Of a DNA stretch of 64,000 bases, positions 1 through 31,144 are shown piece by piece. The position numbers and the translations under genes were made by a program. Positions within the stretch are counted from its first letter, which is position 1; each line of letters starts with the position of its first letter. Location of the stretch: NCBI GenBank assembly GCA_051859245.1, contig JBHYGA010000004.1:544001-608000 (forward strand). The letters run 5' to 3'. This DNA is from Gemmatimonadaceae bacterium (GTDB taxonomy: Bacteria > Gemmatimonadota > Gemmatimonadetes > Gemmatimonadales > Gemmatimonadaceae). The notes beneath the pieces were generated by a model, which worked only from the letters and a program-made list of their open reading frames with translations, was not told the DNA's origin and searched no databases.

Positions 1-631
1 TGTCACCGAGTGCATCGCTGAGCCGTCCGGCAATGCGGGCGACGAGTTGATTCATGGTATGCACCTCGGACACGAGCGTGGACACATCCCGCGATTCCCA
101 ATAGTGCGTTTCGTCGCGCACTACCACGTTGACGCCGAGGGAGATGGCGTGGTCGAGCAAACGCACGAGTGCGGTGTGGCACGCAACGAGGTGCGCGTCG
201 CTGACCGTGGAAGCGTACTGGGTTTTGCAGCTGCAGTGCCAGTACCAGTCCACCGGCGCTCCGCCCGCCGATCGGCGGCGCAGTAAGCCAAATGTGGCCG
301 TCTCACACCCTTTTCCAGGCTGCACGAGGAACCCCAGCGCTGAGGAGCAATCCCCGTCGAGTGGCGCATCGTCCGCATCATCCGCATCGAATGGAGTGGC
401 GACGATCTGAGCCCACTGGCGCAGCGCGGCGCGCAGCCCAGCGTGCTCACGTTCGCCGCCGCGATCGCCGCCGCGATCGTCGTCGAGGTCAGTCAACAAC
501 GGTGAGACATGAGCGAACGGCAGCGATCGCGCGAACGCTTGAAGCGCAGTGAGCGATGCGATCACCGACTCGCGTGTCGTTGACGCGGGGAGGCGAAGTT
601 CGAAGTTGAGATGAAGTCCGATATTTCCCAC
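1..631 (-). CDS. Hypothetical protein, partial (3' end outside window)
   Basis: Absent from the ORF track because it has no stop in the window. Manual translation from GTG 631 is open to base 1: MGNIGLHLNFELRLP...GKGCETATFGL...WYWHCSCKTQYAS...ACHTALVRLLD...VRDETHYWESRD...LSDALGD. Confidence 0.75.
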   Translation of the reverse strand, partial: MGNIGLHLNFELRLPASTTRESVIASLTALQAFARSLPFAHVSPLLTDLDDDRGGDRGGEREHAGLRAALRQWAQIVATPFDADDADDAPLDGDCSSALGFLVQPGKGCETATFGLLRRRSAGGAPVDWYWHCSCKTQYASTVSDAHLVACHTALVRLLDHAISLGVNVVVRDETHYWESRDVSTLVSEVHTMNQLVARIAGRLSDALGD

Positions 632-28694: not shown

Positions 28695-29276
28695 ATGCAT
28701 CGCCTCTCGCTCACTTCATCACGCACGGCATCACGCGCGATGTCATACGCGCCGCCGCTCCGCGCGCGTGCAATCGCTGTCGCCGCACTCACCCTCTCGG
28801 CGGCATTATGGGTGATGCCAAACACCGCCAGCGCGCAGATGGAACCCAAGCCCGCGGCGACACCATCGGTGATGATGACGCAGACCATCCCGATGAATGT
28901 GAACGCGGACGGCGTGGCCATTCACGGTTATGATCCGGTGGCGTACTTCACGGCGGGTGCACCAACCAAAGGCACCAACGCGTTCACTGCGAAGTGGCAG
29001 GGCGCCACGTTCCAGTTTGCATCGGCGGCCAATCGCGATGCATTTGTGGCCAAGCCCGACGCGTACGCACCGCAGTACGGCGGCTACTGCGCGATGGGCA
29101 TGGTGGGCGGCGGCAAGTATGACATTGATCCCTCCGCGTGGCGCGTAGAAAACGGCCGCTTGTATCTGAACAAAGATCCGCGCACGCAGAAGTCGTGGCT
29201 GCGTGACGTGCCGGGCCACATTGTGAAGGCAGACGCGAAGTGGCCGACCGTGGTGGCCAAAGAACAAAAGAAGTAA
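28695..29276 (+). CDS. Secreted YHS-domain protein
   Basis: AIHGYDPVAYF, F.SAANRDAF...P..YAPQYGGYCA, GRLYLN; GGAG RBS. Confidence 0.88.
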   Translation: MHRLSLTSSRTASRAMSYAPPLRARAIAVAALTLSAALWVMPNTASAQMEPKPAATPSVMMTQTIPMNVNADGVAIHGYDPVAYFTAGAPTKGTNAFTAKWQGATFQFASAANRDAFVAKPDAYAPQYGGYCAMGMVGGGKYDIDPSAWRVENGRLYLNKDPRTQKSWLRDVPGHIVKADAKWPTVVAKEQKK

Positions 29277-29303
29277 CGTCAGGGCGACAGATTCTGGTCT
29301 TGC

Positions 29304-29332
29304 TTGACAAATGAGCAGAACCCCGTCAGGAT
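29304..29332 (+). promoter_or_regulatory. Sigma70-type promoter of the aroF leader
   Basis: TTGACA(29304)-17 bp-CAGGAT(29327); predicted +1 falls near the A of the leader ATG (29339). Confidence 0.6.
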
Positions 29333-29338
29333 TGTGCA

Positions 29339-29419
29339 ATGCGCCACAACGCCAGCTTTTATGCCTATTGGTTTACGCCGACCCCCACGGGCCACGGCGT
29401 CGGGCATTGCTGCGCGTAA
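29339..29419 (+). CDS. Aromatic amino acid attenuator leader peptide, 26 aa
   Basis: MRHNASFYAYWFTPTPTGHGVGHCCA*; five of six consecutive codons are Phe/Tyr/Trp; upstream of DAHP synthase. Confidence 0.85.
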   Translation: MRHNASFYAYWFTPTPTGHGVGHCCA

Positions 29420-29442
29420 CGCGCTCCACCTGACGATCTGCG

Positions 29443-29476
29443 AGGCCCGTGCTCAATGCGCGGGCCTTTTTTGTTT
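29443..29476 (+). terminator. Attenuator terminator
   Basis: AGGCCCGTGC-tcaat-GCGCGGGCCT followed by TTTTTGTTT; the 5' arm can alternatively pair with CACGGGCC (29386-29393). Confidence 0.88.
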
Positions 29477-29536
29477 GGCCAACGCAGATCGCACACGCCG
29501 AGTGGATCCCAACACTCTCTCTGGAACGGGACCCGT

Positions 29537-30577
29537 ATGATCATCGTGACTGCAGTTGGAACACCGGCCGACGCTGTAGAAAACATTGTGGCGCATGTGG
29601 AGCGTGCAGGACTGCGCGCGCACATCAGTCGCGGCGAAGAACGCACCATCATTGGCTGCATTGGTGATCATGACAAACTGATCGCGGCCAATCTCACACG
29701 TCTGCCCGGTGTGGAACAGGTGCTCAAGATCGGCAAGCCGTACAAGATTGCGTCGCGTGCGTTTGCGGGGTCTGATACGATTGTGTCGCTGGGGGACGCG
29801 GCGGGCACGCGCGTCGGTGGTGCAGAACTGGTTGTGATTGCAGGTCCGTGTTCGGTGGAGGGGCGCGATATGCTGTTTCAAACGGCGAACGCCGTGCAGG
29901 CGTCTGGCGCGCGCGCGTTGCGTGGTGGTGCGTTCAAGCCACGTTCGTCGCCGTACGCGTTTCAGGGTATGGGACGCGAAGCTCTGGAGCTGCTCGCCGA
30001 GGTGCGTGCGGAAACGGGATTGCCGGTGGTGACCGAAGTGCTGGATCCACGACAGGTGGAGTTGGTCTCGGAGTTCGCCGATGTGCTGCAAGTCGGCGCG
30101 CGTAACATGCAGAACTTCGCGCTGCTCACCGAGATTGGGAAATCGCATCGCCCGGTGCTACTCAAGCGCGGTTTGTCGGCCACGATCACCGAACTGCTCA
30201 TGGCCGCGGAGTACGTGCTGGCGCAGGGCAATACGCAGGTGATGTTGTGCGAGCGTGGCATTCGCACGTACGAAACGTCCACGCGCAATACGCTCGATAT
30301 TGCGGCGATTCCCGTGCTCAAGCGCGAGACGCATTTGCCGGTCATTGTGGACCCGAGTCACGCGGCGGGGCAGGCCGCTTTAGTTGCGCCACTCGCGATG
30401 GCGGCGATTGCCGCCGGCGCTGATGGATTGATTGTGGAAGTCCATCCCGACCCGACGTGCGCGCAGTCGGACGGTGAACAGTCGCTCACTTTTGCCGCAT
30501 TCGACGCGATGATGCGTCAGGCCCGCGTGGTGGCGCAGGCCGTGGGCCGCGAGTTGACCGTGCCGCTACTGGTGTAA
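29537..30577 (+). CDS. aroF: 3-deoxy-7-phosphoheptulonate (DAHP) synthase, type I-beta with N-terminal regulatory domain
   Basis: [53 protein letters not shown]...SDG.QS. Confidence 0.95.
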
Positions 30578-31144
30578 CGAAACGCGATCGGCGGCGCGTG
30601 CGAGTACGATGAATCGTGTCCAGTTGTGCGGCACATCCTGTACTCCACGCGCCAGCACTTCGAGTCCGTAACGCTGCGCTGCCAATGCACTCGCGATGGC
30701 GGCCACCGTGCGATCGCCGCGTTCACTGACTTCACGCGCGGCGCCGGCAGTATCGGCGTGTGGTTTGACTTCCAGCCACGGGTGTCGCGCGGAGAAGATG
30801 CGACACTGCGCCAGCGCCACCGGATGACTCCAGACCTGTTGTACAGTCGCGAGCATCGCACCGGGAACACCGAGTACGCACAACTCAATGACCAGCCGGT
30901 GTTCGTCGATCGGCACGAGTGCGTCGCCCACGCTGTGCATCGCGTCGAGCGCTACGGTCACCTTTCCGGCGATCGCATTCTCAACCGGAATCATGGCGCG
31001 GTCGCAGTTACCGCTGAGCACGGCCTGCAACGCCGCGGGGAATGACGTGTGTGGTACACCAACTGCCGTGTCACCGAAGTGCTGAAGCACTGCAGTATCG
31101 GAGTAGGCGCCGGGTTCTCCCTGATACGCGACGCGTTTGATCAC
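30566..31144 (-). CDS. pheA: Prephenate dehydratase, catalytic domain only
   Basis: AYQGEPGAYS, PVEN..AG.V, SHP.ALAQC, DTAGAA, N.TRF; stops before any ACT domain. Confidence 0.88.
   Translation of the reverse strand: MIKRVAYQGEPGAYSDTAVLQHFGDTAVGVPHTSFPAALQAVLSGNCDRAMIPVENAIAGKVTVALDAMHSVGDALVPIDEHRLVIELCVLGVPGAMLATVQQVWSHPVALAQCRIFSARHPWLEVKPHADTAGAAREVSERGDRTVAAIASALAAQRYGLEVLARGVQDVPHNWTRFIVLARAADRVSLHQ

Follow-up and report, generated by a model that had tools for sequence, protein, structure and literature searches.

In Escherichia coli, the trpL, pheL and hisL leaders follow the four-segment attenuator model, and the ilvGMEDA and thr leaders are multivalent attenuators with codons for several end-products. 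Leader peptides that are translated from leaderless transcripts are also known, for example in Sinorhizobium. Further leaderless cases, as far as the accessible parts of the sources go, are 14 predicted leader peptides in Deinococcus deserti (PMC4007540), polycysteine open reading frames (ORFs) in mycobacteria (10.1101/834739) and the ilvB leader of Corynebacterium glutamicum, which has no ribosome-binding site (cited in PMC4046766). The latter organism also carries an aroR leader (Phe-Tyr-Phe) in front of its aroF operon, where stalling is said to raise transcription (PMC11802643, PMC4046766); in the available sections of PMC11802643 the response is to limitation of Phe, not of Tyr. Here we describe a putative attenuator with mixed aromatic control codons in a Gemmatimonadaceae bacterium. 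It is located in a stretch of 64,000 nucleotides (nt) that was analysed as a whole and is referred to as the window (contig JBHYGA010000004.1, positions 544,001 to 608,000; G000:C4:544001-608000 in our numbering), which belongs to a genome of 4.70 Mb with 62% G+C. Judged from sequence comparisons, positions 29304-29476 of the window quite probably constitute a leader-peptide transcription attenuator, in which ribosomes stalling for charged tRNA-Tyr or tRNA-Phe, and possibly tRNA-Trp, would allow read-through into the gene for 3-deoxy-D-arabino-heptulosonate 7-phosphate (DAHP) synthase. It is likely that such an attenuator raises the expression of DAHP synthase when Phe, Tyr or Trp run short.

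The features of the predicted element and its target gene are as follows.

29304..29309, + strand: −35 hexamer TTGACA, read in the sequence and followed by a 17-nt spacer
29327..29332, + strand: −10-like hexamer CAGGAT, ending 6 nt 5' of the leader ATG at 29339
29339..29419, + strand: leader ORF of 26 codons plus TAA, MRHNASFYAYWFTPTPTGHGVGHCCA, with the stop codon TAA at 29417-29419
29357..29374, + strand: control codons TTT TAT GCC TAT TGG TTT (F Y A Y W F), read in the sequence
29375..29400, + strand: predicted anti-antiterminator (1:2) hairpin, ACGCCG (29375-29380) with CGGCGU (29395-29400) and CACGGGCC in the loop region, from folding and the RNAalifold consensus
29386..29404, + strand: predicted segment 2 (antiterminator 5' half), CACGGGCC (29386-29393) plus CGUCGGG (29398-29404), from the fold of 29386-29455
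29412..29424, + strand: predicted small hairpin GCGCG-UAA-CGCGC, whose loop contains the stop codon of the leader, present in all folds made
29429..29451, + strand: predicted segment 3 (antiterminator 3' half), CCUGACG (29429-29435) plus GGCCCGUG (29444-29451), from folding
29442..29476, + strand: predicted intrinsic terminator, GAGGCCCGUGC / UCAAU / GCGCGGGCCUU plus U-tract, with 11 pairs (8 G-C)
29537..30577, + strand: DAHP synthase gene with N-terminal regulatory domain, start codon ATG at 29537 (NCBIfam NF006421)

An aromatic leader conserved with DAHP synthase

The gene behind the leader had been taken for a DAHP synthase gene in an earlier sequence-only reading of the window. This identification holds, as the product scored 483.4 bits against the NCBIfam model NF006421 (cut-off 335), and its residues 1-338, i.e. 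the full length including the N-terminal regulatory domain, align to the solved chains 1rzm and 3pg9 with an E-value of 4.8e-109. The TTGACA and CAGGAT hexamers of the proposed promoter, as well as the leader ORF with its run of control codons, also lie where that reading had placed them. Phe and Tyr are each encoded twice in the leader and Trp once, which amounts to 5 aromatic residues in 6 positions. Short ORFs with at least 5 aromatic residues in 6 occur 3 times in the whole genome, and the one with a terminator behind it is the leader at 29339-29419. The two strands together have 620 terminator-like sites, and none but this one follows a short ORF with 4 or more aromatic residues in 7. Moreover, a covariance model built for the genus had a single match in the whole genome (E-value 3.3e-39), the next hit having an E-value of 0.79. 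The site is far beyond chance and represents a single-copy element in this 4.7-Mb genome. Terminator-like sites as such show no excess in the 3-kb region (3 versus 2.6 ± 1.7 in shuffles).

No Rfam family reached its gathering score in the leader. The best match was to Leu_leader with 22 bits versus the 50 needed (E-value 0.079); none of the models Trp_leader, Phe_leader, His_leader, Leu_leader and Thr_leader attained its gathering score, and there was no match to a T-box or a riboswitch. The other 7 weak Rfam matches were to small RNA models and lay mostly on the terminator. These negative results bear on the idea that the RNA is a switch that responds to the binding of a ligand, tRNA or protein (riboswitch, T-box or TRAP-like), with an ORF that is merely incidental. 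Such a switch would agree with the high degree of structure in the leader (z-score of −3.4) and with the strong conservation of parts of it. However, besides the lack of a database match, an in-frame aromatic cluster at a fixed distance from the antiterminator segment is the only feature to have been kept in highly divergent sequences, and it would be needless for a ligand-binding RNA. We find a switch of this kind barely credible.

The conservation of the leader was assessed in 100 orthologous DAHP synthase upstream regions from Gemmatimonadales (L002-L016, L032-L056 and L137-L196). Locus L019, whose DAHP synthase gene is preceded by a long open frame and by no recognizable leader, was dropped; loci L020-L026 and L028-L031 represent a paralogue type that is ~50% identical and fall outside the set, and loci L017, L018 and L027, which encode a shorter form of the enzyme, were treated separately. 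Orthologues of the window copy that are 82-98% identical were found in 11 of the 14 other genomes of the genus, a tally that is the only one to include genome G021; the exceptions are G001, G003 and G014, whose completeness is 89, 64 and 85%, respectively. In the order as a whole, 113 of the 401 sampled genomes had a match at an E-value ≤ 1e-112. The sequence-only reading had named an alignment of relatives' upstream regions as a way to check the leader, and this alignment speaks in its favour: 92 of the 100 regions contain an aromatic-cluster ORF of 21-41 codons (median 27), starting with ATG in 87 cases and with GTG in 5. At least 4 aromatic residues in 7 are present in 81 of these 92 leaders, the weakest being L166, L174 and L175 with 2. 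Of the remaining regions, 2 are cut by contig ends (L004 and L056) and 6 have no leader (L137, L140, L153, L165, L190 and L192). In L137 and L192 the orthologous DAHP synthase gene directly follows a prephenate-dehydratase-like ORF with no leader in between, which suggests an operon form with any control located further upstream.

The leader is located ~160-270 nt 5' of the DAHP synthase start throughout, and the upstream neighbour gene varies. By this comparison, the leader is conserved with the DAHP synthase gene rather than with the upstream neighbour. Beyond the order but within its class, leader and hairpin were found together at 4/4 loci of family f4, 4/4 of f8, 5/16 of f7 and 0/2 of f6; in a second class, the leader was found at 0/2 loci of family f10. 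The N-terminally shorter form of DAHP synthase has an aromatic leader at 2 of 3 loci (L017 and L027; L018 is without). The shorter enzymes at L017 and L027 are 68-71% identical over the catalytic part, and their leaders contain …SYFFSYY… and …TYFYYFAF…. Outside the phylum, orthologues from this DAHP synthase clade (L063-L136) showed no convincing aromatic leader, and a Gemmataceae record (L089) has a possible one. Aromatic-rich ORFs at A+T-rich Firmicutes loci were not counted, because these are expected from composition.

The promoter-like sequences are of particular relevance for the way in which the leader would be translated. The pattern TTGnnn-16..18-nAnnnT, followed by 4-10 nt (mostly 6-7) to the start codon, precedes 83 of the 92 orthologous leaders. 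Genome-wide, the same pattern precedes 669 of 63,750 ATG triplets on the + strand (1.0%). In relatives, the −10 element reads nAnnnT, for instance TAGCCT or TACCGT. A Shine-Dalgarno-like motif within 16 nt upstream of the leader start is found in 6 of the 92 leaders only. The promoter geometry and the small number of Shine-Dalgarno-like motifs therefore leave room for a few untranslated bases at most, and from both we infer that the leader is translated from a leaderless mRNA. The earlier suggestion that translation of the leader is leaderless has thus gained comparative support.

A consensus scan revealed no promoter-like site on the + strand between the terminator and the DAHP synthase gene. 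This counts against the alternative that the ORF and the terminator form an independent gene for a small protein or a small RNA, and that DAHP synthase is expressed from its own promoter without any link to the leader. What favours such a gene is that the tail of the peptide, TP.R.G.G, is partly conserved in Gemmatimonadaceae, and that attenuator RNAs and leader peptides with functions of their own are described for Sinorhizobium meliloti in the accessible parts of PMC7298713 and PMC6614838. However, the unit is always found at the above-mentioned short distance before DAHP synthase while the upstream genes vary, what is conserved in the peptide is the aromatic cluster, changes in the tail being largely non-synonymous while RNA pairs are kept. 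In addition, the control codons and segment 2 are separated by a fixed spacing, for which an independent gene would have no need. We consider an unlinked gene exceedingly unlikely. By analogy to the trpL RNA and peptide of Sinorhizobium, it is conceivable that a released short RNA, or the 26-residue peptide with its TP.R.G.G tail, acts in trans on other genes of the aromatic pathway or on stress genes, which would make the attenuator the hub of a small regulon in Gemmatimonadota; this extension seems quite improbable to us.

Predicted competing RNA structures and the reach of the ribosome

The terminator and U-tract noted in the sequence-only reading were found as a hairpin at 29442-29468 with 11 pairs, 8 of them G-C, and a 5-nt loop, followed by TTTTGTTTGG. 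On its own, this hairpin has a folding energy of −22.4 kcal/mol (z −5.56). Likewise present are the complementarity between CACGGGCC (29386-29393) and the terminator 5' arm GGCCCGTG (29444-29451), and the pairing of ACGCCG (29375-29380) with CGGCGT (29395-29400) that encloses the former segment. The complete leader RNA folds with −64.4 kcal/mol (z −3.40), which beats all 200 dinucleotide shuffles. For the untranslated leader, the minimum free energy (MFE) structure from the AUG onwards (−60.6 kcal/mol, z −3.39) consists of two parts, a leader domain and the terminator. In this leader domain, AUGCCU (29361-29366) within the control codons is paired with GGGCAU (29401-29406), and ACGCCG:CGGCGU is formed around CACGGGCC. 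The 1:2 hairpin at 29375-29400 alone reaches −13.0 kcal/mol and is part of the RNAalifold consensus.

The situation with a stalled ribosome was represented by removing the bases up to 29385 and leaving out the 3' arm of the terminator. The resulting fragment, 29386-29455, is predicted to fold into an antiterminator with an MFE of −36.9 kcal/mol (z −3.44; 0 of 200 shuffles were as good). This is a two-part helix composed of CACGGGCC:GGCCCGUG and CGUCGGG:CCUGACG, which surrounds the stop-codon hairpin. GGCCCGUG (29444-29451) is common to the antiterminator and the 5' arm of the terminator. The antiterminator of the sequence-only reading was thus right as far as the pairing CACGGGCC:GGCCCGUG is concerned, but it was incomplete, since CGUCGGG (29398-29404) also pairs with CCUGACG (29429-29435) and the stop codon is enclosed. 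As the stop-codon hairpin is located inside the antiterminator, a ribosome at the stop codon would sit within that structure.

In our view, the strongest single argument for the ORF being read, and for its reading to decide the fold, is a spacing of 13 nt. Ribosomes cover ~12-13 nt downstream of the A-site codon. In 89 leaders, the best partner of the terminator 5' arm begins at a median of 13 nt (interquartile range 12-15) past the first base of the last control codon; the distance is at least 12 nt in 69 of them. In the window leader, a duplex search puts the start of segment 2 at 29385, which is again 13 nt past the first base of the last control codon. Since this offset approximates the reach of the ribosome, a stalled ribosome would cover the anti-antiterminator arm and would just spare segment 2. 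The distance from the end of segment 2 to the stop codon has a median of 21 nt (n=89). Segment 2 therefore ends before the stop codon, and a ribosome that reads on would run over it. The fixed 13-nt offset would also offer a testable measure of ribosome reach in an organism without genetics.

The attenuator would operate as follows. The first transcribed base would be the A of the ATG at 29339 or lie no more than a few bases away from it, and the resulting leaderless mRNA would be translated. If there is no ribosome, or if the ribosome runs to the stop codon at 29417, segment 2 (29386-29404) would be unavailable, be it through the ACGCCG:CGGCGU hairpin together with long-range helices in which the control codons are engaged as well, or through being covered by the ribosome. 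The terminator at 29442-29468 would then form, and transcription would end at the U-tract around 29470-29476. If the ribosome is stalled on 29357-29374, its leading edge would mask ACGCCG and halt just before CACGGGCC. The freed segment 2 could then pair with the emerging CCUGACG and GGCCCGUG before the 3' arm of the terminator has been made, and the polymerase would read on.

Covariation was examined in 46 model-fitted sequences, the model (R1) having been derived from 11 sequences of the genus. An alignment named A2 was discarded for alignment A3, because A2 had reverse-strand matches to the palindromic terminator. The terminator and 1:2 structure was 93.8% paired, and 16 of its 26 pairs were changed on both sides, where shuffled sequences gave 6.2 ± 1.4 such pairs and slid controls gave 0-4; the alignment was fitted to the tested structure and is hence biased in its favour. 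The terminator helix was 99% paired with both-sided changes in 6 of 11 pairs, and the 1:2 helix was 94.3% paired with both-sided changes in 3 of 4 pairs. Changes in the peptide outside the aromatic cluster are often non-synonymous, yet the RNA pairs are kept, as exemplified by L007, where ACGCCG:CGGCGU has become GCACCG:CGGUGU. Across families, the terminator sequence and its upstream partner change together (CGGGGCCG/CGGCCCCG in L015, GCGGGGGCC/GGCCUCCGC in L016). Consistent with this, the duplex between the terminator arm of a leader and its own search region is 3.6 kcal/mol more stable than duplexes with the search regions of leaders that have different arms, and the rank of the own versus foreign duplexes was ≤0.05 in 28 and ≤0.2 in 61 of 89 leaders.

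The hairpin is present in 89 of the 92 leaders, and 82 of the 92 pass a strict U-tract rule. In fold simulations, the terminator forms in the full untranslated transcripts of 87 of 89 leaders, and in 83 of 89 'stalled' fragments without the 3' arm, 60% or more of the terminator 5' arm is paired upstream. Relative to mononucleotide shuffles, the median z-score of the 89 leaders is −2.55, and 62 of them score below −2. A helix that joins the control codons to the 3' end of the ORF, as drawn by eye for every member of the genus (AUGCC:GGCAU, UAUUCC:GGAAUA, AUCCC:GGGAU, UUACC:GGUAA and CCUAC:GUAGG), was given little weight because its register shifts between sequences. With the leader in 92 of 100 regions, the conserved spacing and the covariation of the terminator and the 1:2 hairpin, the data are in line with the view of the sequence-only reading that DAHP synthase is preceded by a ribosome-mediated attenuator of the trpL/pheL type. 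The element is real, conserved and single-copy and is well supported by comparison; its transcription start, its termination site and its response to Tyr, Phe and Trp are predicted.

It should be noted that several observations weigh against this interpretation. CAGGAT matches TATAAT at 3 of 6 positions only, which makes it a weak −10 element and explains why the promoter was missed by the consensus promoter scan. A search for RNA sequencing runs containing positions 29200-30600 gave no match. The relatives are not independent of one another, and all family counts are inflated for this reason. If the whole terminator is available (29386-29476), the terminator fold with −43.9 kcal/mol beats the antiterminator with −36.9 kcal/mol. 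Being thermodynamically disfavoured, read-through must therefore rest on the order of co-transcriptional folding, which is an assumption commonly made for attenuators. Sequestration of segment 2 in the ribosome-free fold averages 0.6 over the leaders and is 0.3 in the window. The mononucleotide-shuffle controls are imperfect in that G+C-rich RNA pairs readily (the arm is paired to 0.77 versus 0.62). Stem covariation, proposed as a check in the sequence-only reading, was obtained for the terminator and the 1:2 hairpin but not for the outer antiterminator helix, which is mostly invariant: it is 96-99% paired, and 2 of its 8 pairs have both-sided changes, in one sequence each. Trp codons are absent from 63 of the 92 leaders, and the window leader has a single one. 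Lastly, the U-tract is degenerate (...GGGCCUCGGUCGUUUC) in 10 of 92 leaders, belonging to Gemmatimonas-type and other orthologues (including L032, L033, L037, L040, L041 and L047), and the efficiency of intrinsic termination is therefore uncertain in those orthologues. In the Gemmatimonas-type orthologues with a degenerate U-tract the hairpin is kept, and its stem is lengthened by CCGA:UCGG.

The poor U-tracts in some orthologues could also mean that stalling acts chiefly via Rho, or via translation of the downstream gene, instead of via the intrinsic terminator. The same may be said of a conserved inverted repeat that, in members of the genus, lies immediately before the start codon of DAHP synthase. 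However, this repeat is without covariation, the terminator in the window is strong with a clean U-tract, and hairpins are nearly ubiquitous in the 92 leaders. Furthermore, RNA left exposed by a stalled ribosome would be open to attack by Rho, and expression would fall, the opposite of what a biosynthetic gene calls for. An action chiefly through Rho or downstream translation is therefore very unlikely in our view, and we maintain that stalling would act through the intrinsic terminator.

Amino acids probably sensed by the leader

Tyr residues number 272 in the 92 aromatic clusters, compared to 159 Phe and 32 Trp residues, and 91 of the 92 leaders contain Tyr, 74 Phe and 29 Trp. The clusters within the genus include FYAYWF, YSYFYF, YSYWYF, YPYFYF and YFYYYF. 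W swaps with F between close relatives (YSYWYF versus YSYFYF), which shows that the aromatic identity is kept while the residue drifts. The codons TTT (64% versus 41%) and TAT (46% versus 33%) are somewhat above a crude genome background. As judged from these clusters, the conserved input of the family is Tyr and Phe, with Trp being optional. Because Trp is found in less than a third of the leaders, a three-amino-acid reading fits this particular leader and not the family. In this leader, the Trp codon may serve as a third input. The earlier claim that a shortage of any one of the three charged tRNAs leads to read-through is thus only partly upheld: the codon content of this leader and the conservation of Tyr and Phe in the family agree with it, but the sporadic occurrence of Trp does not.

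A serious alternative is that the same attenuator senses Tyr and/or Phe only, and that the Trp codon is a neutral stand-in without a useful response to Trp. The low incidence of Trp compared to Tyr and Phe points in this direction, as does the W/F interchange in close relatives. Furthermore, according to the alignment to 1rzm and 3pg9, the DAHP synthase has the N-terminal regulatory domain of the Thermotoga-type enzyme, which we take to be inhibited by Tyr and Phe. The aroR leader of C. glutamicum, the only analogue studied by experiment, offers a parallel, since the accessible text of PMC11802643 reports increased transcription upon Phe limitation only and no effect of Tyr. On the other hand, a stall at UGG (29369-29371) would put the edge of the ribosome over ACGCCG, as it would at the neighbouring Tyr and Phe codons, and a Trp stall should therefore work mechanically. 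Also, trpE has no Trp leader of its own in this genome, so that a response to Trp at the common step would not duplicate one there, and single control codons are known to matter in some other attenuators. All in all, we rate a restriction to Tyr and/or Phe as a substantial possibility that falls somewhat short of an even chance.

Genomic setting and comparison with known leaders

A second DAHP synthase of the same type, which is ~50% identical, is encoded elsewhere in the genome (G000:C5:603391-604404). The gene for this paralogue lies directly behind another gene and has no leader upstream. The prediction is that the DAHP synthase copy in the window, and not the paralogue, is responsive to Tyr and Phe. 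Directly upstream of the DAHP synthase gene in the window, an inverted repeat at 29503-29536, GTGGATCCC ... GGGACCCGT (GCGGATCC ... GGATCCGY in relatives from the genus), with a pyrimidine-rich stretch inside, ends 0-1 nt 5' of the ATG. This repeat is 89.8% paired in 11 sequences, yet its covariation is not above that in shuffles, and it is absent from the window's own MFE fold. On the other side, a convergent gene for 192 residues (30566-31144, − strand) overlaps the 3' end of the DAHP synthase gene by 12 nt at its own 3' end. Its product matches prephenate dehydratase below the curated cut-off and in the catalytic part only (positions 5-187 of a 283-position model), lacking the C-terminal regulatory part.

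Outside the window, at G000:C4:198476-198640, a His leader MRSALQHHHHVHHGHGPTGRGLAYVLAGA (MRSALQHHHHVHHGHG...) is located before a terminator and hisG. It is preceded by TTGACC-18-TAGCAT-6-ATG, and the partner of its terminator arm starts 13 nt past the last codon of the His run. The hisG leader thus shares both the promoter-to-ATG spacing and the 13-nt offset with the aromatic leader. Taken together, the aromatic and the His leader of this genome indicate that leaderless transcripts serve as the basis for attenuators in this lineage. If this is true, ribosomes would have to load on a 5'-terminal AUG fast enough to couple to RNA polymerase. No Trp leader was found at trpE (G000:C1:944496, − strand, outside the window). 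A promoter-like site, TTGCCA-17-GAGTAT, is situated a few bases before its GTG start, and trpE itself may be transcribed as a leaderless mRNA. At another position outside the window, G000:C4:110922, a 12-codon ORF, MTLSLFLNAARL, lies 6 nt behind the promoter-like site TTGAC-17-CATACT.

Our literature search yielded no description of an amino-acid attenuator for Gemmatimonadota. The assumption of the sequence-only reading that the element had not been described in this lineage therefore holds for the literature on Gemmatimonadota that was searched, whereas attenuators of this kind are known elsewhere. Within the scope of this search, the aromatic leader would be the first amino-acid attenuator to be described in Gemmatimonadota, a common but little-studied soil phylum. 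The ~100 sequences absent from Rfam represent a candidate RNA family, and the unannotated leader ORF is an addition due in genome annotations.

Like the trpL, pheL and hisL leaders of E. coli, the present element would combine control codons with a 1:2 anti-antiterminator, a 2:3 antiterminator and a 3:4 terminator, and it would depend on the coupling of translation to transcription. It differs from them in that there is no similarity in sequence or model (Rfam matches were below threshold) and very probably no Shine-Dalgarno sequence or 5' untranslated region. Also, its stop codon is located inside the predicted antiterminator and not before segment 2, and its control codons mix 2-3 amino acids. 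With the ilvGMEDA and thr leaders it has in common that one leader would serve several end-products of a shared pathway. Theirs are the branched-chain and Thr/Ile pathways, whereas here it is the aromatic pathway and the multivalent response is a prediction. In the leaders of Deinococcus and mycobacteria and in the ilvB leader, the start codon is found at the 5' end of the transcript, directly behind the promoter, as is predicted for the present one. Mapped transcription starts underlie those cases; for the present leader, the leaderless start is deduced from spacing (83/92) and from the scarcity of Shine-Dalgarno-like motifs (6/92). Among the leaderless cases in the accessible parts of PMC4007540, 10.1101/834739 and PMC4046766, no aromatic leader before DAHP synthase was found reported.

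The closest described counterpart is the aroR-aroF leader of C. glutamicum, which we regard as an analogue by design and do not treat as a homologue. By its description, the likeness consists of mixed aromatic control codons before a DAHP synthase gene. The two leaders belong to different phyla, and the cluster described here is longer, with 5 aromatic residues in 6 positions and up to 7 in 7 in relatives, and is dominated by Tyr. Moreover, the present leader includes a Trp codon, is followed by a single gene and belongs to a family that is phylum-wide.

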